DNA from: Eledone cirrhosa
Taxonomy: Eukaryota
Length of the DNA: 64,000 nt
Reading direction: 5' to 3'
Assembly (NCBI GenBank): GCA_964016885.1
Contig: OZ024744.1
Location: 5,518,001 to 5,582,000 of the forward strand
A program made the translations under genes and the position numbers. Each line of letters begins with the position of its first letter. Position 1 is the first letter of the stretch. Of the stretch, positions 48,001-64,000 are shown piece by piece. Under the pieces are notes generated by a model. It saw only the letters and a list, made by a program, of their open reading frames with translations. It ran no database searches and was not told the origin of the DNA.

Positions 48001-50639
48001 CAGGATCAACGGTAGTACCTCACTATATGTGACATATTTAGGTGGTTACTGTGATATAGACAGTTTATCAAGATCGACGGTAGTACCTCACTATATGTGA
48101 CATATTTAGGTGGTAACTGTGGTATAGACAGTTCATCAAGATCAACGGTAGTACCTCACTATATGTGACATATTTAGGTGGTAACTGTGGTATAGACAGT
48201 CCATCATGATCAACGGTAGTACCTCACTATATGTGACATATTTAGGTGGTAACTGTGGTATAGACAGTTCATCAGGATCAACGGTAGTACCTCACTATAT
48301 GTGACATATTTAGGTGGTTACTGTGATATAGACAGTTTATCAAGATCAACGGTAGTACCTCACTATATGTGACATATTTAGGTGGTAACTGTGGTATAGA
48401 CAGTTTATCAAGATCAACGGTAGTACCTCACTATATGTGACATATTTAGGTGGTAACTGTGGTATAGAGTTCATCAGGATCAACGGTAGTACCTCACTAT
48501 ATGTGACATATTTAGGTGGTAACTGTGGTATAGAGTTCATCAAGATCAACGGTAGTACCTCACTATATGTGACATATTTAGGTGGTAACTGTGGTATAGA
48601 GTTCATCAGGATCAACGGTAGTACCTCACTATATGTGACATATTTAGGTGGTAACTGTGATATAGACAGTTCATCAGGATCAACGGTAGTACCTCACTAT
48701 ATGTGACATATTTAGGTGGTAACTGTGGTATAGACAGTTCATCAGGTTCAACGGTAGTACCTCACTATATGTGACATATTTAGGTGGTAACTGTGGTATA
48801 GACAGTTCATCAGGATCAACGGTAGTACCTCACTATATGTGACATATTTAGGTGGTAACTGTAGTATAGACAGTTCATCAGGATCAACGGTAGTACCTCA
48901 CTATATGTGACATATTTAGGTGGTTACTGTGATATAGACAGTTTATCAAGATCAACGGTAGTACCTCACTATATGTGACATATTTAGGTGGTAACTGTGG
49001 TATAGACAGTTCATCAAGATCAACGGTAGTACCTCACTATATGTGACATATTTAGGTGGTAACTGTGGTATAGAGTTCATCAAGATCAACGGTAGTACCT
49101 CACTATATGTGACATATTTAGGTGGTAACTGTGGTATAGAGTTCATCAGGATCAACGGTAGTACCTCACTATATGTGACATATTTAGGTGGTAACTGTGA
49201 TATAGACAGTTCATCAGGATCAACGGTAGTACCTCACTATATGTGACATATTTAGGTGGTAACTGTGGTATAGACAGTTCATCAGGTTCAACGGTAGTAC
49301 CTCACTATATGTGACATATTTAGGTGGTAACTGTGGTATAGACAGTTCATCAGGATCAACGGTAGTACCTCACTATATGTGACATATTTAGGTGGTAACT
49401 GTAGTATAGACAGTTCATCAGGATCAACGGTAGTACCTCACTATATGTGGCATATTTAGGTGGCAACTGTGGTATAGAGTTCATCAGGATCAACGGTAGT
49501 ACCTCACTCTATGTGACATATTTAGGTGGTAACTGTGGTATAGACAGTTCATCAGGATCAACGGTAGTACCTCACTATATGTGACATATTTAGGTGGTAA
49601 CTGTAGTATAGAGTTCATCAGGATCAACGGTAGTACCTCACTCTATGTGACATATTTAAGTGGTAACTGTGGTATAGAGCTAATCAAGATCAACGGTAGT
49701 ACCTCACTATATGTGACATATTTAGGTGGTAACTGTGGTATAGAGCTAATCAAGATCAACGGTAGTACCTCACTATATGTGACATATTTAGGTGGTAACT
49801 GTGGTATAGAGTTCATCAGGATCAACGGTAGTACCTCACTATATGTGACATATTTAGGTGGTAACTGTGGTATAGACAGTTCATCAAGATCAACGGTAGT
49901 ACCTCACTATATGTGACATATTTAGGTGGTAACTGTGGTATAGACAGTTCATCAGGATCAACGGTAGTACCTCACTATATATGACATATTTAGGTGGTAA
50001 CTGTGGTATAGACAGTCCATCAGGATCAACGGTAGTACCTCACTATATGTGACATATTTAGGTGGTAACTGTGGTATAGAGTTCATCAGGATCAACGGTA
50101 GTACCTCACTATATGTGACATATTTAGGTGGTAACTGTGGTATAGAGTTCATCAGGATCAACGGTAGTACCTCACTATATATGACATATTTAGGTGGTAA
50201 CTGTGGTATAGACAGTTCATCAGGATCAACGGTAGTACCTCACTATATATGACATATTTAGGTGGTAACTGTGGTATAACAGTCCATCAAGATCAACGGT
50301 AGTACCTCACTATATGTGACATATTTAGGTGGTTACTGTAGTATAGAGTTCATCAGGATCAACGGTAGTACCTCACTATATGTGACATATTTAGGTGGTA
50401 ACTGTGGTATAGACAGTTCATCAGGATCAACGGTAGTACCTCACTATATGTGACATATTTAGGTGGTAACTGTGGTATAGACAGTTCATCAGGATCAACG
50501 GTAGTACCTCACTATATGTGACATATTTAGGTGGTAACTGTGGTATAGACAGTTCATCAGGATCAAGGGTAGTACCTCACTATATGTGACATATTTAGGT
50601 GGTAACTGTAGTATAGAGTTCATCAAGATCAACGGTAGT
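1..50639. repeat. Tandem satellite array, 66/68-bp dimorphic monomer, about 750 copies, open at the left window edge
   Basis: Consensus CAACGGTAGTACCTCACTATATGTGACATATTTAGGTGGTAACTGTGGTATAGA(CA)GTTCATCAGGAT repeated head-to-tail without interruption. Most copies differ from consensus by 0-4 substitutions. Copy number is array length divided by about 67 bp. Confidence 0.99.
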
Positions 50640-50730
50640 GAGATAAGCATTCAATCATATCTACCTTACTGTATGTGACATAATTAGGTGTTAACTGAGG
50701 CATGGACAGTTCATCTTGATCAACGGTATT
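50640..50730. repeat. Diverged terminal 91-bp unit of the array (68-bp type monomer plus 23 extra bp)
   Basis: GATCAACGGTA occurs at 50627 and again at 50718 (91 bp apart). Between them lie the 23-bp GAGATAAGCATTCAATCATATCT and a monomer with 9 substitutions that has the GACAG (68-bp) form. Confidence 0.92.
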
Positions 50731-51310
50731 GTTGGCTTATATATTTGTTTTGTTGTCAGTTGACATTGTTGGCTAATTGGACGTCCGCCATGTTTATTCC
50801 ATCAAGCCTATCTGGATATTTCTTTCTACTTTCTGAAATTTCTCGTTTTAGTTTTATCTGTTTGAGTCCCGTTAATTTCTTGTTAAAATGTTTGTATTTC
50901 TGGAAGATGTATTTTCCTTCTTCGTGTATAATGTTTATCGATTTTGATTTTCTGTTGGTGTAGTGATTTTACTCATTTCTTGTATTAGGTTACCTTTTAA
51001 TTTTTCTTGTTGGCTTAATTCTATGTAAATTTTCTTTTTGTGTTTAGAATCAGTGTTTGAATCTATCAGCTTGTCTTTTGGTTAGTTGGAGTTTTCTTAC
51101 ATTGATGGTGTAAAATCTGGATGAGGCACATTGTTTTATGAAGTGCAGTTGTCGAATTGTTATTGATTTCTTTAGACAACAGAACATGTCGGCTTTCAGT
51201 GTCTTGTTAGCTTGGCTAGAGCTTACGGTAATTCGTTTTTGTATTTTTTTCGCGAGATTTCTTATCTGAAAACGTGTGTTGAAACAGATATTGTTATATT
51301 TTGGCAGCAT
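50641..51310 (-). pseudogene. Frameshifted N-terminal ORF fragment of a Penelope-like element, same family as the 57.9-60.7 kb copy
   Basis: Minus strand reads MLPKYNNICFNTRFQIRNLAKK...IRQLHFIKQC..., then across frameshifts KKKIYIELSQQEKLKGNL / INIIHEEGKYIFQKYKHFNKKLTGLKQIKLKRE...YPDRLDGINMADVQL / TVDQDELSMPQLTPNYVTYSKVDMIECLS. The start region TTGGCAGCATGACCCTCCCAAAGTATAACAAT (51301-51332) matches TTGGCAACATGACCCTCCCAAAGCATAACAAT at the 3' end of the RT/GIY-YIG element (60715-60746) with 2 mismatches. Confidence 0.75.
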
Positions 51311-51388
51311 GACCCTCCCAAAGTATAACAATACCTGTTTCAACACACGCTTTCAGATAAGAAATCTCGCAAAACAAATAAAAAAACG

Positions 51389-51393
<5 letters not shown>
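51229..51393. repeat. Fold-back inverted repeat (about 76-bp arms, 13-nt loop) at the 5' end of the PLE fragment, resembling an inverted pLTR tail
   Basis: Left arm TAATTCGTTTTTG...GTTATATTTTGG is imperfectly complementary to right arm CCAAAGTATAAC...AAAAAACGAATTA. The right arm ends directly at a (TA)n tract. Confidence 0.93.

Positions 51394-51422
<29 letters not shown>
51392..51422. repeat. (TA)n microsatellite
   Basis: Pure TA dinucleotide run. Confidence 0.97.
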
Positions 51423-51424
<2 letters not shown>

Positions 51425-52514
51425 GATAACAAATTATCGTTATAGGTAATCCAGTTAGAGGTTGTGAATACTCCGTATTGTGGATAGATTTAGCGTACGG
51501 TGTTGTTTGACTCAACAAGAGGTTTCCTTAGGTAGCGAGTTAGCGAGTTCGGGAATTCCTATGCAGATTAATCTTGGAGTAATAAGAGTGAAAGAGTGAA
51601 GAATAACATGGTCAACAGTACAAAAAGGGTTTTATTTACAGTATCAACAATTGTTTCATTGATTAAGTTGTCTAAAAATTGTTAATCACATGAAGTTGTG
51701 TCTCAATTTTAAATACAATGCATGCTTAATCAAATCATCGGAAAAACTGATTAAAATTATACACGGCTTGTAGATATTATACTAAAGTATATATATATAT
51801 TATACCAAAGAAAACAAATATTCGAGGAAGCTAAGGTTATATTGTAACTATATAATGAAGGAGAAAAATTAGGATTACAAAAATCAAAGGTAAATTATCT
51901 ATATTTATGTATAATTTAAATTGGTATTATATAAGTGGGAAAATATTTAACAATTCGTATAGCTTTTTTATATAACTTATATGGTTATAATGCTATGAGA
52001 TAAATTAATTAGTTCAAAAGAAGAGATGTAATTACCGTAGCCTTTCAACAATTACATTTAAGTAGTTATACAAATAGAGGAAAATATTAGCTATTTGTGT
52101 AACTATTATTATAAGAAAAGATGTATGTATTATAGCCTAGTTTATCAATATATATTAAATATATATTAATTTAATTTAGTTATACGCTAACTAAAGATAA
52201 GGTAGATGAAAAAGTTATAATGAAAAAATATTAGTTTACTTAATTTGTCTATTCGTCTTAATCTAAAGATAATGAAATCGCTTAAAAATTTTAAATAAAG
52301 AAATATTTTTTATTTATTTTTCTATTATTAATTTTAACTAAAAACTCTATGAAACGTTTTCGAAAACCTGTGAAGATAAGAACTAAAGATTTCAGATGGT
52401 ATATTAATAATTAATTGCCTATTATAAATGATATGTAGAATTTCTGAGGTACAGAGGTCACGTCCTTTAGATACAGAAGCATTTTTCGTAAGGCAAAGCA
52501 TTAAAAAGTTTCTG

Positions 52515-54320
52515 TCAAGAAAGGGAATTTATCTACTACTCCCAACCTGGTTCCATCAACCATGATATTGGGTTAAGTATATGGTTCTCGAGGAGCAGGG
52601 GGTAAACATCACTTCGTCTTTTTAAGGCTGATTGTAAGCCTAAATGCTGTACACGAGGATGAGAAAACGTCCATAATGTGTTGCATGTCAGCTTCTGTGT
52701 GTGCTAGGAAATCAGCGTCGTCAGCGTAAAAAAGGTCTCTGATCAGAGCTTGAAAATATTTTGTCGTGGCATTAAACCTTCTTAAGTTAAAACACTTTCT
52801 AGTGGTTCTGAACCGTAAGAGAGCCCCTGTCACAATCAAGGAAAGAATGTGTGAGCAAGGCAGCAAAGAAGATGGAGAAAAGCGTAGGAGCAGGAATATC
52901 ACCTTTCTTTACTCCATATTCAATTGAGATTTCCCCAGATAGCTGACAATTGAAAGTAACCCAAGCTTTCATATTTTTAATCAGCTACTTTAGCATACTC
53001 ACAAACTTGGGTTGACATCCTACTTTTCCAAGTATTTTCCAGAATATATCTCTGTTAACTGTGTCAAAGGTCTTCGTTAGGTCGACAAAGACTTGATATA
53101 GGGAGACGCACTCCTCAATGCAGTTTTCTTGTATTTGTCTTACAGAGGAAATCATGTCAACTGTTCCCCTTCCTCTTATAAAACCACTCTGTGATTCTGA
53201 GATAGCTACATGACAGATATCCTCATCCAGTCTGATGAGCAAAAGTCTTGCGAGAACCTTGCCAACAGCTTCCAACAAAGTGATGCCACGGTAGTTTCCA
53301 CGTATCTTTTTTTCACCTTTGCCTTTGATCCAGTCTTGCGGAACCTGGGTCCCATTCCAGCAATCAGTGATGAAGTTGTTATTGCTTCTGTTACATTATC
53401 ACTGCCGACTTTCAGCAGTTCTACTGGGATACCATCTGGACCTGGTGCCTTGACAGAGTTAACCTACTTGACCGCCAACGTTATTTCATCAGCAGAGGGA
53501 AGTTGATCTATACTGTGGACTGTTTCATATTGAGGAAGATCCTCTATCACTCTAAAATTAACCGCAAACAGATCAGTAAAATATTCCTCCCAAACTGAAA
53601 AGTTTTTGATGGATCTTTGATGATGATATTGGCATCGTCCTTAGATCTCAGAGGAGTTACTGGGGATGTTGGTGTGCCGAAGACTTGGCGTATCAATGAG
53701 TAAAAAGACTTCGAATCTTTGGTGTTTAAAGCCTGTTGGATTTCTGAAGAAATATTACTCCACCACTTATTTTGCATCCTGCGCATGTTGCAGTGTTGCC
53801 TTGTGATCTTTGTATGCTTTCCTGAGAGCTGGTTTTGCTACAGGATTCTGATTCAGGAGCTTTTCATAGAGAGTGTGCTTGGTTTTCAGTAGCTGATTGA
53901 TATTAGAATTGTTGTCATCGAACCAGTCCTGGTGTTTCTTGGTTCTGAAGCCAAGTACCTGAGCTTCCTCTGAGTAAACTTGATCTCTAAAGTTTGCCCA
54001 GGTGCCATCAAAATCAAGATAAAAAAATCTTTCAGTTAGGGTTGCACATACATCTGCTTGCCTCAGTTTGGTGGCATCAATGTGTTTCGGTGCTTTCATT
54101 CCACACATAGGAATTCTTTTGCAGATAATCATCTTGAACGTTCCTCACACTAATTTGTGGTCAGTGCCACATTCTGCACTACGCATCACACGCACTGTAC
54201 ACTCATCACTTATATCTCGTTCAGGAGTGATGATGAAATCAATCATGTGTCCATGCTTGGATGTTGCGTGATACCAGGTAGCTTTATATTTGAGCTTCTG
54301 ACGGAAAAGAGTGTTACACA
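52515..54320 (-). mobile_element. Decayed RTE-clade (BovB-like) non-LTR retrotransposon, APE C-terminus plus RT, truncated at both ends
   Basis: Minus-strand fragments: SKHGHMIDFII...VMRSAECGTDHKLV (end of APE), HQDWFDDN, RRMQNKWW, SQSGFIRGRGTVDMI, VFVDLTKTFDTVNR, GVKKGDIPAPTLFSIFF, LFYADDA, LTISLKKTK. Many stops and frameshifts. Boundaries approximate. Confidence 0.9.
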
Positions 54321-54334
54321 TTTACCGATACAAA

Positions 54335-54606
54335 GCATATACACATGCACACATACAACTCAAAACATCCACATCCACACATACAATAACATCCATATCT
54401 ACAGATGCAGACATACATACATATCTACCTAGTTGATGTTGTGTAAATTCCAATGAGAGAGTCTTGTGTCTATGTTAGAAACCGACTCGGCAAACATTTT
54501 TGAAATTATAAAACCAGAAGTATATACATACATATATACTTACTTACATACATACTTACATACATACACACATACATATATACATACATACATACACACA
54601 TACACA
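54335..54606. repeat. CA/TA-rich low-complexity tracts including (TACA)n
   Basis: Degenerate CATA/TACA runs at about 54335-54425 and 54521-54606. Confidence 0.8.
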
Positions 54607-54975
54607 CTCATCAATATAAATGTTCTAGTATATACGGAGTTATTTGCGAATTCTACTACTTAAGAATTCAAACAGAATTTGACAACAACACGCCATACAA
54701 TTCTAAAAGTCTTGTTAGCTAATCGCTGCTGGCCGTAAAAGAAAATACTTTCATATGTTTGCGGTTTTTCAGGCCATAGACATGCTTTTATCACTCTCGA
54801 GGATTTTATCCAGTAAATTGATGTATAAACAAAAATGGCCGAATTTAATTCCCAGTCGGTTTTGAAAAGAAGATATGTAAAGTTAATGTTCTTTATCTTA
54901 CTTTCAACGATATAGAAAGTTGGATGGTTGCATAGAACAGATCTTCTGCTTCAAGTTTACTTCATAAACCTAATT

Positions 54976-55334
54976 ATATATATCTATGTGAGTATTTATA
55001 TATATATCTATATATCTATGGGTGTGTGTATTTATATACATATATCTATCTATGTGTGTGCGTATATATATATATATGTGTGTGTGTGTGTATTTATATA
55101 TATATATATATATATATTTATGTGTGTGTGTATTTATATATATCTATCTATCCATGTGTGAGTGTATTTATATATATGTGTGGGGAGCTGAGACATAGAG
55201 GGAGAGAGAGAGAGAGGGTCTGTGTGTGTATGTCTGTGTATACGTGTGTGCGTGGGGTGGGGTTTAGATAGAGAGAGAGGGGAGAGAGAGAAAGTATGTG
55301 TATCTGTTTGTATATATGTATGTGGAGGATGAGT

Positions 55335-55373
<39 letters not shown>

Positions 55374-55740
55374 GGAGAGAGAGAGAGGGGGAGTCTGTGT
55401 GTGTGTATCATTGAGTGAGAGAAACAGAGTGTGTGCGTGCGTGTGTGAAACAGTGACAGAGAGAGAGAATGTGTGTGTGTTTGTATGAGTGTGTGTGTGT
55501 CGGTGTGTGTATGTGTATGTGTGTGTGTGTATGGTGTGTGTGTGTCTATGTGTGTATGTATGCGTATGTATGTGTATGTATATGTATGTGCATGTGCGTA
55601 TGTATGTATCAATGTATGTATGTATATATGTGTATGTATGTGTGTCTATATATGTCTGTGTGTATGTGCAAATATGTATATACATGTATGCATGCGTATA
55701 TATGTATATACATGGGTGCATGTGTGTGCATATGTGTGGG
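54976..55740. repeat. Compound microsatellite field (TA, TG, GA, TATG)
   Basis: Alternating imperfect dinucleotide and tetranucleotide runs. Confidence 0.93.
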
Positions 55741-55815
55741 GACATAGAAATAGTCGGGCTGGATACCCGATTGCGCAGTTAAACCAGTGAGAGTGAAGGA
55801 CCCCTAGTCTTTGTC

Positions 55816-55976
55816 AGGGCATTGAGAATTTGAAATATTCTTTGCTCAAAACACTCACAGGACCATAAGTATTACATGTGTAACGTTTGAAAACAATCAG
55901 TTGGGTGGTTCTCGAGTTTTAGGGAGCTGACAGACAAACGGACAGACAGATAGACATTCTCAGATAGACATACAGA
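55816..55976 (-). mobile_element. 5' part of a second non-autonomous Helitron copy, head-to-head with the copy at 55980
   Basis: The reverse complement (TCTGTATGTCTATCTGAGAATGTCTATCTGTCTGTC...CTCCCTAAAACTCGAGAACCACCCAACTGATTGTTTTCAAAC...TCAATGCCCT) aligns with 55980-56127. Confidence 0.7.
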
Positions 55977-56263
55977 TAATCTATATATCTAAAACAGAGA
56001 ATGTCTGTCTGTCTGACTCCCTAAAACTCGAGAAACACCCAACCGATTGTTTTCAAACTTTACACATGTAATACTTATGGTCCTGTGAGTGTTTTGAGCA
56101 AAATATATTTCAAATGTTCAATGCCCTAGGGACGGCATTAGGTGATTTAGCGATCTCTATAATTCTTAGTCTTTCTTTTTAGATAGATACATAGCTATAA
56201 CGTCGCGCCCCTATACTATCTATCTGCATGTCTGGCTGTCTGCATTACGACATTATGACGCGG

Positions 56264-56293
56264 TGTGTGTGTGTATATATATGTATATATATA

Positions 56294-56384
<91 letters not shown>
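56264..56384. repeat. (TG)n/(TA)n microsatellite
   Basis: Short TG run followed by a long TA run. Confidence 0.97.
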
Positions 56385-56388
<4 letters not shown>

Positions 56389-56420
56389 ATTAAATAAATG
56401 GAAACTATATTTATAAAACC

Positions 56421-56497
56421 ATATTTATTTCATTATATATATTTCAGGGATATCATATTAACAATATGTTATGCCTTCATCAGACAAAATACAATAT
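56421..56497 (-). ncRNA. Putative type I hammerhead ribozyme (left arm of the inverted repeat)
   Basis: Minus strand: TATTTTGT-CTGATGA-AGG(CATAACATATTGTTAATATGATATC)CCT-GAAA-TATATA-T-A-ATGAAATA. Intact core; stem I TATTTTGT/ATGAAATA has two G-U pairs; short palindromic stem III. Confidence 0.65.
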
Positions 56498-57637
56498 AAA
56501 CAGTCTTATAAATAAATAGATATGACATACCTTTCAATCGACTTGCATTTGGGAAGTTGATTTGGCAGTAAAAAATATTGTGGACAGTTGTAAAAAGAAA
56601 GAGAGAAAGAAAGAAAGAAAGAAAAACGAAGAAAAAGAAGAAATGCATGTGACTAAATAGAGAGATATAGAAAGATAGATAAAGAGAAGAACTTCATGTA
56701 AAGGAACAGAGAGAGATATATAGAGAGAGGAAAAAAAGAAAGAGATAGATAGAGATAGATAGAGAAACTAGGTAGTTGAGTATCAGTTGATACATTTATT
56801 TATTTATTTATTTATTTATTTAGCTCTAGTATTAATGTAAAGAGAGATGTATGTAGTTAAGAGAGAAAATAGCCGTTATATAGAGAGAAAAAAGAGAAAA
56901 TGAAAAAGAGAAAATGAAAAATAACCAGACATAAACGAGGCAGAATTTAAAAAACGCTTTGTTTCATCATGTAGAAAATATTAGTTCGTATAAAACAGGC
57001 ATTATAATGTAAATATCAGTATTCATGAATGAAACATGTATCTATAATGTGTGAAAAGTAATGATCTTATGTCTAGTTTTTAAAAATTCATATGTTTATA
57101 TCATAATTATAAACAAACTCCCAATTCACACGAAAACATTCTCATTGTGCTATAAAAATTCAAGTATAATATATGTGTGTATATATACACATATATATAG
57201 AGTCTATATTAATTTTAACAATACTATTCTTGTCTTTACTCTACATGATTGTCGATCAAGCAGAAATAGAGAACAGATTTCAATATATTAATAAAAATAA
57301 AAATAAAAATAAAATATCAGAGACAAGAAAATAAATAAATAAACAGAAAACTAAAACATTTAATATTAAAAATAAAAATATTACAAAATATTAAAAAATA
57401 ATAAAAAAATAAAACATAGTATGGCACGCAAATCGGCCACAAAAGATCAGCCTTTCAAAGCTTTCTATATCTCTCTATTTAGTCACATGCATTTCTTCTT
57501 TTTCTTCGTTTTTCTTTCTTTCTTTCTTTCTCTCTTTCTTTTTACAACTGTCCACAATATTTTTTACTGCCAAATCAACTTCCCAAATGCAAGTCGATTG
57601 AAAGGTATGTCATATCTATTTATTTATAAGACTGTTT

Positions 57638-57714
57638 ATATTGTATTTTGTCTGATGAAGACATAACATATTGTTAATATGATATCCCTGAAATATATAT
57701 AATGAAATAAATAT
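57638..57714 (+). ncRNA. Putative type I hammerhead ribozyme (right arm of the inverted repeat)
   Basis: CTGATGA at 57652-57658, GAAA at 57690-57693, U16.1/A17 at 57700/57701. Stem I pairs 57644-57651 with 57702-57709. An A at 57661 (G in the left-arm copy) weakens stem II. Confidence 0.6.
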
Positions 57715-57837
57715 GGTTTTATAAATATAGTTTCCATTTATTTAATATCATAAATATACTCCAAATACTTGTTGAGTGCTTTTATATCAGTTATAAATAT
57801 TTACTCGTTGTTAACCCAACAATTTAAATATAACTTT

Positions 57838-57840
<3 letters not shown>

Positions 57841-57893
<53 letters not shown>
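57841..57893. repeat. (TA)n microsatellite at the 5' junction of the PLE
   Basis: Pure TA run. Confidence 0.97.
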
Positions 57894-57895
<2 letters not shown>

Positions 57896-60372
57896 CGTTT
57901 CTGCTGTTAGTGGAAATAGAAATAGAAACAACACAACTAACAATAACAATAGAAATAGTACACATAAAGCAGCAGCCTGGAACTCTACTTTTTATAATCC
58001 TTCTTATATGTCCTTCGACCTACGACGAGTCCACGCCGCGACTTTAGCTTTTAACAAACGCACGCAATTGCTGTCGCAGGTCGATGAACAAACAGAACCA
58101 CAAGTTAGTATAGATAGATCTAAACTTAGAAATATTATAGAACAGTATAGCAAGAAGCAAAATATAATGGATGCCCAGCAACTGGGAGAAAAATCTGCAA
58201 ATGGCTTGCGTAAGCTCATGCAGCACTCGCGTAATGGAGAGATTGCATGCTTTCCAACAGACAAGTCTGGCAGAATGTCGGTTGACAGTCTATCAAGCTA
58301 CATCCAGGCAATGCAACCCCACATCACTAACACAAGAGAAGTAACAGCACAAGAGCATGAGGATAGGGAGAAAACCATCAATGCCCATATGATGATGTGG
58401 ACAAACATAATGCAGCCCAACAAAAGGACTGCCAACAACTTCCAGGCCTGGAACAATGACGTGCCAGCGTTGTATGGGCTTCGAAAAGACCATAAAACGA
58501 GCAGTGACCCTGTCACAGGACCACCAACACGGCCAGTCTGTGGAGCTAACATTGCTAGTAACTACAGACTTTCCTACTTCCTCTCCCTGATCATACGACC
58601 CATCATTGAAATGTTCCCAGATGTATGTGACAGCACGGAGGACCTCCTCAGCAGAATCAGCGAAAGTAACCGATCTAGGGACCTAACAAACTGTATAATA
58701 GGTAGTATGGATGTTGTGCCCCTATATCCATCCATTGACGTGGATTTTGCTGTGGAGAAATGCGTAGAAATGATCAGTGAAAGCAATGTTGAATTCCGTG
58801 GGATTGATACCAGTGAGCTGGGACTCCTACTTAAACTTATCTATAGTAATGATTATCTAGATACATATGACCTTAGCAACCTGTGCCCTACAAGACCAGC
58901 AAGAGGCAGACCACCTACCATTACCTCAATGGCCAAGAAAACCCACACAGATAGATGGAAAGCGTGGACCAGAGCCATACGGACCCCGAAAACCACGATG
59001 AACTAAAGAAAATGATTGCACATGCGGTGGGGGCCAGTATAAAATTAACCCTTAAGGAACATATGTTCAAATTTAATGAAAAAACATATGCCCAAGAGGA
59101 GGGAGCAACCATTGGTGTTAGCATTGCAGGTGACATAGCTAACCTATTCATGGTATGGTGGGACAATAGACTTAAACTTAAACTTAAAGAACAATTAGAA
59201 GACCCCTCAACCCTGATAATGTACTCCCGCTACGTTGATGATATAAACATCGTAGTACTCCCCCCCCCACCACACACACCCCATAGACAACAGTCAGGAA
59301 TTAGAGAGAAACACCATGGAAAGCATCCAGCAAATAGCTAACTCCATCCACCAGAGTATTAGAGTTACTATAGACTACCCAAGCAAACACCCCAACCATC
59401 GATTACCTGTACTAGACACAGAGCTCTGGTTAGAAACCATTAATAACAAAAAACAAATCCTCCATTCCCATTATGCCAAACCCATGACTTCCAAATACCT
59501 GATCCACCGAAACTCGGCTTTTTCGGACCATACCAAAATCAACATGCTGATTGCGGATTTGGTACGGGTGATGAGAAATGTGTCCCGCATGTGCAGCCCC
59601 AAAGAACTAGAGAGACACATACAACACTTCATCCACCGTATGCAGTTCTCTGGTTACAATCAGAGAGATAAAATCAGAGTGTATAGAGGAGCCAGAACCA
59701 AATGGGAAAAAATGGTAAATAATGATACAAATGGGACCTGCCCCTTGTATAGGAGCAAATTTTGGAATAGAATAGAAAGAACTAGGAATAAGGTTAATAG
59801 AATAAACTCATGGTATGATAGCAATAAATACCAGTGTAATGTTCATCAATACAACCCCTAGAGGTGAATTAGCTTACAAATTTAGAAGGGCCCTAAATAA
59901 ACATAAACTCAATATTAAGATAGTAGAAAGACCAGGTACCTCCATAAAAACACTTATTAGCAATACATACCCTTTTCAAAGACCTCTCTGTATAGATAAG
60001 AAATGTATAATCTGTAAACTAAGCCCCCATATTAACTGTAAAACTAGAAATGTAGTATATAGCATAAGATGTACTGAAGGACAATGTAGAGATAAGAATA
60101 TAGTGTACATAGGTGAGACAGCTCGTAGTATAGGAGAACGGATAAATGAACACTGGCGAGAACTTCAAGATAGTAAAGAATCATCAATACTCCACCAACA
60201 TGCTAAAAGAAAACATAAGGGTAAATTAGAGAACCTAGAATTAAAAATAGAATCTACACACAGAAAAGATGCAATGTTTAGACAAATGACAGAGGCAATA
60301 AAAATAAATGAACTCCAACCAAAATTAAATAGAAAACATGAATGGAATAGCAACATCACAACTTACAATTAA
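57894..60372 (+). pseudogene. PLE polyprotein (reverse transcriptase + GIY-YIG endonuclease), three frameshifts
   Basis: Frame is open from 57894. Motifs: TDKSGR, LYGLRKDHK, RPVC, SMDVVPLYPSI, QEEGATIGVSIAGDIANLFM, YSRYVDDI, LPVLDTELW, HYAKPMTS, CIDKKCIIC..INC, VVYSIRC...YIGETARSIGERINEH, E..KI...PKLN. Split over ORFs 58008-59006, 58955-59341, 59316-59861 and 59815-60372. Confidence 0.95.
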
Positions 60373-60550
60373 GGCCAAAATGAAAACACACACACACGAC
60401 CAACCAGTAACATGTAAATAAACAAATAAATAAACAAATATAAACACACACAGACACCCGGATGTAACACATGCGCAAACTAAGCACACAAAAACAAGAT
60501 GGCGTAGGACAGAACAAAGGAGATGCACAAAAGAAAGAAAAGAATCCCCA

Positions 60551-60593
60551 GTCACTGAAGAGGTCACAGAATGTGTGACGAAAGAACTTTGAC
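60551..60593 (+). ncRNA. Minimal type I hammerhead ribozyme in the PLE pLTR
   Basis: GTCA-CTGAAGA-G-GTCACA(GAATG)TGTGAC-GAAA-GAAC-T-T-TGAC: intact core, 6-bp stem II, stem I GTCA/TGAC, very short stem III. Minimal hammerheads are an established feature of PLE pLTRs. Confidence 0.85.
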
Positions 60594-60899
60594 AATATAT
60601 GAACAACCGTCCGGTTGTGGAACCAACCAACAACCGGAAATTTATAAATTCCTAAATTTATAAATTTAATTTATAATAAATTTGAGTGAAAGTAACTGGT
60701 GCGTGTGTTTCTTATTGGCAACATGACCCTCCCAAAGCATAACAATATATATATATATATTTAAAAGTTAAACAAGGTTCAATGAATACATCAAAGAATG
60801 AGTTTTACAATAGATTGGAAGCACTCAATAGAAAAGGTTTTCCAGAGTACTACCATGACTGAATCTTAACCATCTACTATGTCAGGGTATGTCATGTAT

Positions 60900-60976
60900 A
60901 ATTTTATTTTATTTGATGAGGACGTACTGTTGAACTTAACTCAGTACCTCTGAAATATGTATAATGAAATATAATT
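60900..60976 (+). ncRNA. Degenerate hammerhead ribozyme related to those in the 292-bp inverted repeat
   Basis: TATTTTAT-TTGATGA-GGAC GTACTG(loop)CAGTAC CTCT-GAAA-TATGTA-T-A-ATGAAATA. Core C3 is changed to T. Shares the GAAATATRTATAATGAAATA 3' half and an upstream GGTATGTCAT with the 57.6 kb copy. Confidence 0.55.
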
Positions 60977-61011
60977 GATTACAAGATTATCTATTTTGTT
61001 AATATTTTGAA

Positions 61012-61052
<41 letters not shown>

Positions 61053-61544
61053 TAAAGTTTTTCGAAATATTTACTTCTGCGTTCACAGATTGATGATTTT
61101 AGTTTCAGAAGATCCCGTTAAGGGTGAAAGCAGCGATTCTTTGTTTAAACTTTAATCTGTTATATATATAATTATATATTCGTGTACAGATATTTTTGCA
61201 TACACAACAATAACAAAATATAAACAAACGTATTTATTTCACGAGGCTCGATAAGGATAAATATATATCAAATATATAAGAACCCTAGAGCAAATCCTGA
61301 GCAACGCCGGGTCATTCTGCTAGTTCACATTAAAATTACTCGTACTTTCAAACACGTTAGACTTACACCAATAATTGATAAGGAATGAAATCCAGGGGAT
61401 TGAGTTGAGAGAGATGTAAGGCCGATTCCTATTGGTCAACTATTAAACTCTGTTGTATACCAGGGATAGCTTGGTCTGCTACTGTGTAAAATAGCCAAGT
61501 ATTTCTAGAAAACAAAACCCCCCAAGAAACATCAACAAAGCAGA

Positions 61545-61721
<177 letters not shown>

Positions 61722-64000
61722 CCTTGAATCTCAGTCATTGATGTTGGTTAACTGGAAAGTCCGTTGGATTGAATATCAAGCCACTACCTGCAGCCTCAGA
61801 TATTCAGGACGTATCGGAGGGTTCTTGCCGTTCCAAGCAAGCATGCCTTTTGAAGCGTTCCAAAAAGCGTGAAGGGGCCGATTTTCTTTAACCATCCCTG
61901 GAAACCTTTGGAGATAGTCCCCAGTGCGCCTATGACAATCGGGATCACTTTGACTTCATGGCAGTTCCAAATCCTTTTCACCTCCCACTTTAGGTCCTGG
62001 TATCGGTTAATTTTCTCCCTCTCCTTCTCTTGCACTCTCGTGTCGAACGGGCAGGCCACATCCACAATCAGGCACGATCTTTTTTCTTTGTCCACAACCA
62101 CCAGGTCAGGTCTATTGTGTTCCAGTTTTTTGTCCGTCTGTATCCTAAAATCCCACAGCACCTTCACCTGACTGTTCTCCATCACCGCCTCTGGCCTATG
62201 CTCATACCATTTCTCAGAATGTGGTAGATTGTTTACTTTGCACAGGTGCCAGTGGATCACCCTGCCCATCACATCGTGTCTCCAGCCCTTATAGTGGGTC
62301 TGGGCTAGGTGTTTACACTCGGACACGATGTGAGCCACAGTCTCCTCTCTCTCTCCACAGATCCTGCACAGTGGGCTAGCCTCCTCCTTGTAGATATGGT
62401 GCTTCAACCACTTCGTTTTGAGGGCCTGCTCCTGCGCAGCCATTAGCATTCCTTCTGTAGCCTTTTTGAGGTCTCCTCTTCTCAACCAGTTCCATGTCTG
62501 TGGATCTCTAAATTCAGTTTTCTCAAAGAAGGTACTATGAAGGGATTTTCCCTTAAGGCTGCTCTTCCTCCTTGATGTTATTTCCTCCTTGGATATCCCC
62601 TGGCCTACTGTCCCCTCCTTCAGTACAGCTCTGAGCATTGGCTCCTTACTATAGGTCACGTATTTGTATAGGTTGTTTTTCTCCATCTGAACACAGTCCT
62701 CTATGCTGATAAGACCTCTTCCACCCTCAGATCTCCTTAGGTAGAGTCTATCGACATCACTCCTCTTGTGGAACATGTTGTAGATAGTCAATAGCTTCCT
62801 AGTCTTCCTATCCATTTCTTTTTGTTCAGCAACATTCCATCTCAGAATTCCCGCACTGTACCTAATAATAGACACAGCTCGGGAATTTACTGCGCTTATG
62901 GCATTTCTGCTGTTCAGATGTGACTTCAATACGCTCCTTACTCACCGAATGTATTCAGTTCTTAACAATTCCTTCATTTTTTTGTTCTTTATGCCATCAG
63001 CCTCCAGAACGCCCAAATACTTGTATCCTTCCTCAGAGTCAATTTCCTTTATCATCTCACCTGTTGGTATCTGGATCCCGTTACTTCTGCTCAACCTACC
63101 CCTCCTCATCACAATGACTCCACATTTACCAATACCAAACTGCATACATATATCACTGCTGAAAATACGGACAGTGTCAACAAGCACATCCAACTCCTTC
63201 TCACTTTTCCCGAAGAGCTTAAGATCGTCCATGAAGAGGAGGTGATTGATGGTAAGCTCTCCCCTTCCCAACTTGTATCCTGCTCTCACTTTTCGCAGCA
63301 TAATGGTCAAGGGCATCAGGGCAAGGACAAACAACAGAGGGGACAGGCTATCTCCCTGGAAGATACCTCTCTTGATCTTCACGCTTCCCAAGGATACTCC
63401 AGTTGATGTCAACTCTGTCTCCCAGGACCCCATACTCCTGCCCAGCAACTGTCTGATGTTATCTGCCACCCTGAAGATCTCCAGGCTTTTGGTGATCCAG
63501 GAATGAGGCACCATGTCAAATGCCTTTCTGTAGTCTATCCATCCCATGGCAAGATCAGTGTGTCTCCTCCTGCAATTCCCCATTACCATCTTATCAATAA
63601 GCAACTGGTCCTTTGTACCACGTGACTTCTTTCGGCATCCTTTCTGTTCGTCCGGCAACAAGTTGTTTGTGTGGAGGTGATGGTAGATTTCCTCAGACAC
63701 AATGCTCGTCAACAGTTTCCACATTACGGGCAGACATGTGATAGGTCTATAGTTGGTAACATCATTACCCTTGATTCGGTCTTTCATTATCAGAACTGTA
63801 GTACCTTTTGTCAACCACTCTGGCACCTCACCCGACACCAAGCAGTCATTGAACATGGCCGTCAGCTTCGGGTGGAGGGATGTTAAATGTTTAATCCAAT
63901 ACCCCTGCACACCATCTGGGCCTGGTGATTTCCAGTTGGTTAGTTTTTTGGCTTGCCCCTTAAGAGTTTCAACTGTGATACTCAAATCAGTCTGTTGCTG
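61722..64000 (-). mobile_element. R4/Dong-clade non-LTR retrotransposon (RT + restriction-like endonuclease), continues past the right edge
   Basis: ORF motifs listed in the next feature. A 74-bp 3' UTR abuts a (TAA)n-rich tract, the established target type of Dong elements. Confidence 0.92.
61796..64000 (-). pseudogene. RT-CCHC-RLE ORF with a single in-frame premature stop at 62942-62944
   Basis: WKSPGPDG, YRPITCL, EQKGCR..SRGTKDQLLID, WIDYRKAFDMVPH, GIFQGDSLSPLLF, HLLFMDDLKL, YKYLG; CRICGEREETVAHIVSEC; RHD; RPDLVV..IVDVACPFD; EKINRYQDL. The two listed ORFs are in one frame: E-Y-I-R-TGA-V-R-S-V-L-K-S. Confidence 0.93.

Follow-up and report, generated by a model that had tools for sequence, protein, structure and literature searches.

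Satellites can arise from parts of transposable elements (TEs), and a review that treats this origin (PMC12692304) names Penelope elements among the sources; arrays built out of one sub-sequence of a transposon have also been described (bioRxiv 10.64898/2026.09.17.752431). The locus reported here, in a 64 000-nt stretch of Eledone cirrhosa DNA (the window), is likewise an array of a retroelement sub-sequence that was later homogenised. The worked examples in the relevant passages of these two sources are kilobase units of LTR elements, whereas here the unit is a short internal coding segment of a Penelope-like element (PLE), and the parent copy and the birth junction are still attached. The maize CRM1TR/CRM4TR arrays (PMC3648361) are also retrotransposon-derived, with local gene conversion and an initial structure made by successive rearrangements; as that paper outlines them, their source sequences are the LTR and UTR of Ty3/gypsy elements, in contrast to the PLE ORF used here. 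Non-LTR retrozymes (bioRxiv 10.64898/2026.07.22.740005) share with our array the local amplification of PLE-derived tandem repeats, but they originate from terminal repeats and carry a hammerhead in each unit, whereas our unit is coding DNA.

Array ends are known for divergent monomers and weaker homogenisation, as summarised in the same review (PMC12692304). The terminal unit of the present array likewise escapes homogenisation; compared with such ends as described, it differs in being a single divergent unit, with no gradient, that can be polarised against a protein outgroup. The primary papers on divergent array-end monomers are reportedly those of McAllister and Werren in 1999 and of Mravinac and Plohl in 2007. 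Our literature search, which covered open-licence papers, mostly as listings, returned no report of this repeat or of an octopus PLE-derived satellite.

Satellite origins are usually inferred from loose transposon similarity. In the present case one can draw on the parent copy and the birth junction, as well as on an intermediate length and a protein outgroup, and therefore the steps can be put in order and tested at the far array end. The locus is a clear, unusually well preserved case of a known process, the making of a satellite from retrotransposon coding DNA, and is suited as a teaching or case study. The known picture is unchanged unless the common breakpoint described below recurs in other insertions of the same PLE family.

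The satellite array

A tandem repeat over 50 kb long, read on the minus strand, fills the first 50.6 kb of the window (1-50638, by tandem-repeat finding and unit splitting) and extends past the left window end. Splitting the window at a fixed anchor gave 754 units: 432 of 68 bp, 318 of 66 bp (one of these being a 68-type unit with another 2-bp loss), two of 67 bp, one of 65 bp and one of 91 bp. The array unit is a copy of about 22 codons of the PLE ORF, and minus-strand frames from mid-array are matched by an HMM built from 15 related proteins with no window sequence in it. Since its units follow one another head to tail over a long distance and are homologous to part of a TE, the repeat belongs with the TE-derived satellites.

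The 750 units of 66 or 68 bp differ from the 68-bp consensus by a mean of 1.4 mismatches, and their divergence showed no gradient toward the array end, each of 10 bins giving 1.2-1.6 differences per unit. Compared pairwise, 200 sampled units out of these 750 differ by 2.5 on average, versus at least 8 to the 91-bp edge unit; even the nearest array units are still 8 differences away from it. Common variants occur in 66- and 68-bp units alike, runs of identical units up to 21 long are repeated 67 units apart, and the unit beside the edge unit is already the derived 66-bp form. The flat divergence, common variants and repeated runs fit unequal exchange or conversion that reached the unit beside the edge. 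Low pairwise difference together with variants common to both lengths is the pattern of concerted evolution, and the homogenisation inside the array that the original prediction had named as one of two options fits the same two features.

The array probably has no coding function. On the minus strand the 66-bp consensus holds one stop-free frame of 22 codons, half of which lie outside the ancestral frame; this frame is probably incidental because the interspersed 68-bp units interrupt it. Nor does the unit qualify as a retrozyme: a CUGAUGA-like word and a 6-bp stem are present, with no GAAA after them. Rfam found no hammerhead over 50000-64000, a weak test that also missed a hammerhead-like core near 60555.

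The edge unit

The last unit of the array (50629-50719, minus strand) is the only 91-bp unit visible. It had been described as a terminal unit of the 68-bp form with 23 extra bp, and unit splitting and alignment agree: aligned to the 68-bp consensus it needs one gap of 23 bp, placed at 50639-50661 or shifted right by one base, and shows nine mismatches. Of these nine differences, two lie at first, one at second and six at third positions, the third-position codons being those named in the original prediction. A 434-bp public contig covers 50629-51029 with zero differences in two of three contig runs (X1 and X2), at low depth (5.4 and 3.7). This identity argues against a consensus error at the edge unit, with the qualification that the runs are of one sample, possibly the assembly's own source, and that their agreement is not independent support.

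The parent element

Next to the edge unit lies the decayed N-terminal part of a PLE ORF (50720-51310, minus strand). The HMM, whose 15 relatives were chosen from 72 for reaching the N-terminal region and include several close kin, matches this flank over 185 residues with E 9e-15. The PLE frame here contains stops, one at 50739-50737, and needs a +1 shift near 50764; the ORF continuation once claimed for the edge unit holds in that the 23 bp continue PLE coding (see below), and fails in that the frame is not open. Two translations of the flank, one of them out of frame, matched no Pfam family.

The flank is inverted relative to a tail (51309-51393, plus strand) that consists of the first 28 codons of the ORF and is one arm of a 79-bp inverted repeat (51229-51307 versus 51315-51393, seven differences), found by repeat search and arm alignment. 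A 33-bp start motif at the tail start (at 51301) also ends the second PLE of the window, at 60715-60747. A (TA)n microsatellite (51392-51422, by tandem-repeat finding) is the probable insertion target: PLEs are biased toward (TA)n insertion (PMC8557442), and public reads and contigs of this PLE end carry (TA)n loose ends. The layout of inverted truncated segment and short tail is known for PLEs from that same source, in the relevant part of which tails measure 30-40 bp, versus about 85 bp here. ORF homology, inverted segment with short tail and (TA)n insertion are all features of a PLE, and the unit and flank are the decayed N-terminal coding region of one, assigned to the type with a C-terminal endonuclease through the relatives' proteins; the window holds neither the RT and endonuclease of the parent copy nor a terminal repeat of it.

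Four of the seven differences between the inverted-repeat arms are synonymous (P 0.03-0.08), or three of six without the junction base (P 0.10-0.18), and the arms may stem from two slightly different templates. The summed contig depth over the ORF-start segment (51227-51310) reaches 6.8e5, versus 4-5 for the contig that matches this locus exactly; across the genome this end of the PLE appears to exist in very large numbers, for the most part in short, truncated insertions.

Coding origin of the 23 bp

The 23 bp (50639-50661, minus strand) are missing from all array units and encode DMIECLS plus two nucleotides in the PLE register; the 23-mer is unique within the window, on both strands and with up to six mismatches. 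The edge peptide aligns ungapped with the relatives' motif YGG-x-x-L-x-x-x-E-x-x-x-L-x-LPPK(F/Y) and beyond, and this colinearity extends through the unit into the 23 bp. One relative, P0051, has SKVKPIEC for the edge SKVDMIEC, an ungapped match through I-E-C. Scored against a profile of 18 relatives (18 of 36 rows, chosen by the upstream LPPK motif, which excludes the scored columns), the seven codons rank above 99.9% of shuffled versions (P 0.00095) and, compared with random 21-mers taken locally, above 99.8% (P 0.00175); the array's own continuation scores lower (-2.1 versus 3.2). Residue identity over the seven codons is at most 3/7 with any one of the 18.

At the DNA level, a contig from another PLE copy is 84% identical over 151 bases (50654-50807), which include 8 of the 23 bases; in the orientation indicated by other rows, it then continues for 134 letters without fit. 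The bin-mean depth implies a contig similar to this one in run X3 too, as well as a single raw read, of another sample, that reaches 50641. Profile scores, protein alignment and partial contig overlap together point to the 23 bp as a genuine PLE coding continuation. Their membership in the PLE had been predicted and is upheld (in register with related proteins, P about 0.001); judged on those proteins, they are not a stretch absent from intact PLEs. A 36-base contig, at low depth in all three runs, fits exactly 50662-50697 as implied by the depth, with its start at the boundary of the 23 bp. It may stem from a further PLE copy or be the relic of a satellite unit at some other place.

Codon positions and polarity

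Six third positions among nine differences are nominally unusual (binomial P 0.042; simulations 0.018-0.033). Synonymous changes number three, at most four, versus an expected 2.0-2.6 (P 0.32-0.53 for at least three and 0.10-0.25 for at least four), and only three of the six third-position changes are plainly synonymous. As a control we took 32 differences in the flank between the parent copy and other copies (from 40 listed and 170 in all, leaving out 50691 and seven sites of uncertain frame); these fall 10, 13 and 9 on the three codon positions with 10 synonymous, which is a pattern of neutral decay. Third positions make up 31/102 of the array's own variants; the edge compared with the flank control gives 6/9 versus 9/32 (Fisher P 0.053). 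The codon-position test that had been proposed yields a nominal third-position excess (P 0.02-0.04) with no synonymous excess. The excess gives no support to selection or to another donor, since synonymous changes are not enriched and conserved residues are broken. Purifying selection on the edge/array differences was rejected given the synonymous count of 3/9. It is possible that two template copies contributed to these differences, because the edge and control differ at P 0.053 and the inverted-repeat arms lean synonymous.

Polarity was taken from the protein outgroup, which leaves five of the nine sites without polarity. On the edge side P>T and K>N alter residues that are kept in 13/15 (P) and 14/15 (K) aligned relatives. 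The array-side changes are K>E, at a site where the edge and 12/15 relatives have K, and probably Q>P. The array consensus had been considered more ancestral than the edge; this is so for its LPPKY, but not where the edge keeps K and the array has E. Edge and array both have P where all 15 aligned relatives have L, which appears to be a derived change in common and could be a family trait. Because both lineages carry derived changes and appear to have L>P in common, no other donor copy is needed. The array base at 50691, the site of the conserved P, is carried by contigs that differ from the locus, among them one 36-bp contig that is a possible satellite unit, and by one read. The divergence of edge from array (9/66) is compatible with that of the inverted-repeat arms (7/79; Fisher P 0.28, computed on 9/66 versus 6/78).

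Order of forms and proposed history

D-E-L keeps the frame of the motif in the 68-bp form only and is shifted out of it in the 66-bp form; we therefore derive the 66-bp form from the 68-bp form. The 68-bp form is colinear with intact related proteins, yet is without sequence found in the parent. The order 91 to 68 to 66 given in the original prediction is supported as a structural order, and as a derived form the 66-bp unit is not the one that matches intact PLEs; the 23-bp loss included in that order is indistinguishable from a second, nested 68-bp duplication, the product being identical. The breakpoints of the 91- and 68-bp junctions, both of which show C against an A in the flank, agree to within 1-2 bases; random loss would give such a coincidence in about 7% of cases (6/91 placements). 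A 5-bp perfect inverted repeat flanks the 23 bp; noticed post hoc, such a repeat is found at 1.4% of arbitrary 23-mers. Deletion driven by a hairpin was considered and set aside as a weak note only (fold -2.1 kcal/mol, shuffle P 0.29).

We favour, with a probability of roughly 0.7, a local back-step duplication in a decaying PLE, followed by expansion and homogenisation from which the edge unit was left out. The PLE would have entered the (TA)n tract as a short tail and an inverted 5′ segment (the structure is observed, the insertion mechanism presumed). Once decay had begun, a 91-bp back-step duplication would have occurred inside the PLE coding region, and next to its junction a 68-bp unit may have formed, either because the last 23 bp were lost or through the equivalent nested duplication. 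This unit would then have been amplified, and a 2-bp slip would have produced the 66-bp form; the two forms would have been mixed and homogenised through unequal exchange or gene conversion. The edge unit, held between the unique flank and the 23-bp heterology, would have escaped homogenisation and gathered neutral mutations. Points against this history are the nominal third-position enrichment, the synonymous lean of the inverted-repeat arms, the junction coincidence of about 7% and the neighbouring unit that is already 66 bp.

The common breakpoint bears on two other accounts. Both junction types, with their C against the A of the flank, might stem from a single complex event in which a polymerase engaged in DNA repair re-primed repeatedly at a fixed site and produced first one 91-bp copy, then 68-bp copies, with further growth by recombination; the 5-bp inverted repeat around the 23 bp suits such an event, and the divergence places the duplication near the insertion in time. 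We consider it unlikely: the common C is accounted for just as well if it was inherited from the 91-bp junction, the hairpin is weak, and the product is identical to that of the stepwise path, with nothing specifically in favour of one event. That the PLE RT itself wrote the seed repeats at insertion, by stopping at a fixed template position and jumping back in a telomerase-like manner, seems very improbable. The breakpoint is as such a process would leave it; under the twin-priming model we take the plus strand to be the cDNA strand, and therefore the copies would have a common stop point and a variable re-entry point. The 95% intervals of 9/66 and 7/79 overlap, and PLE RTs stand closer to telomerase RTs than any others do (PMC8557442). 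Yet the common L>P, if private to the parent copy, puts the duplication after the insertion, the microhomology for realignment is at most 1-2 bases, and a second example was not found in our searches. If true, repeats would have been added to an internal coding segment in the manner of telomerase, with the two junction types at one breakpoint as the preserved trace.

Two further accounts bring in DNA from elsewhere or an error. The array unit could derive from another PLE copy or subfamily that was joined later, or the edge could have been converted, with the third positions (6/9) reflecting selection on two active lineages; the array junction reads G-T-T-V-D in register with the relatives' G-x-x-L, as would fit a donor with 4-bp microhomology, and the other copy that is 84% identical over 151 bases is about as close as edge and array are to each other (86%). 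The G codon arises automatically from the K-V codons at the unit end, however, relatives also have G-N at this place and the flank nearly so, and the order of flank, 91-bp unit and array requires a junction exactly at the unit boundary. With no synonymous excess (3/9), conserved residues broken on both sides and L>P in common, we regard a second donor as quite unlikely. That the 23 bp are unrelated DNA inserted in an edge unit otherwise of the ordinary 68-bp kind, or that they are an artefact of assembly, could be argued from the identity of at most 3/7 residues to any one of the 18 relatives and from the sole other-copy contig among the matches listed, which overlaps 8 of the 23 bases. This reading is largely refuted by the profile scores (P about 0.001-0.002), the ungapped match through I-E-C with P0051, the identical contig, and the depth-implied raw read of another sample from 50641.

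Relatives and the second PLE

A second, related PLE, 5′-truncated, lies at 57894-60750 on the plus strand, with RT, CxxC linker, GIY-YIG and a terminal repeat with a hammerhead-like core, its domains being spread over several frames. We used it as query for full-length relatives of the flank, and 38 proteins among 4073 candidates were fetched with it, the best from Octopus vulgaris (66% identity); the YVDD RT motif is present in the fetched proteins. GIY-YIG matches fall under the Pfam cut-off (P0051, E 0.0036; window 59806-60369, E 0.0002). The second PLE has a CxxC linker; PMC8557442 describes a CX2-5CxxC linker before GIY-YIG for Neptune and Nematis, clades to which the element may belong. 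Near 60555 it has hammerhead core motifs and a 6-bp stem (fold z -1.4, Rfam without match). A direct search with the flank gave three proteins, one from Octopus bimaculoides, all ending upstream of the unit. The Octopus matches make an octopod the probable host. Protein searches confirmed no close relative spanning the unit (0/366 candidates, 0/1 and 0/124 stretches), and DNA pattern scans gave 0 matches in metagenome, prokaryote and viral collections.

Other elements in the window

A 298-bp inverted repeat (56377-56674 and 57461-57758, 99% complementary, 786 bp apart) has (TA)n at or near both outer ends and is a young element. A further inverted repeat, of 111 bp (55816-55926 and 56017-56127, 94% complementary), is MITE-like. 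Two non-LTR retrotransposon remnants with Pfam RVT_1 matches lie on the minus strand at 52609-54270 and 61796-64000; the latter includes a zinc-binding domain, and its end lies close to a (GTT)n(TTC)n(TTA)n tract.
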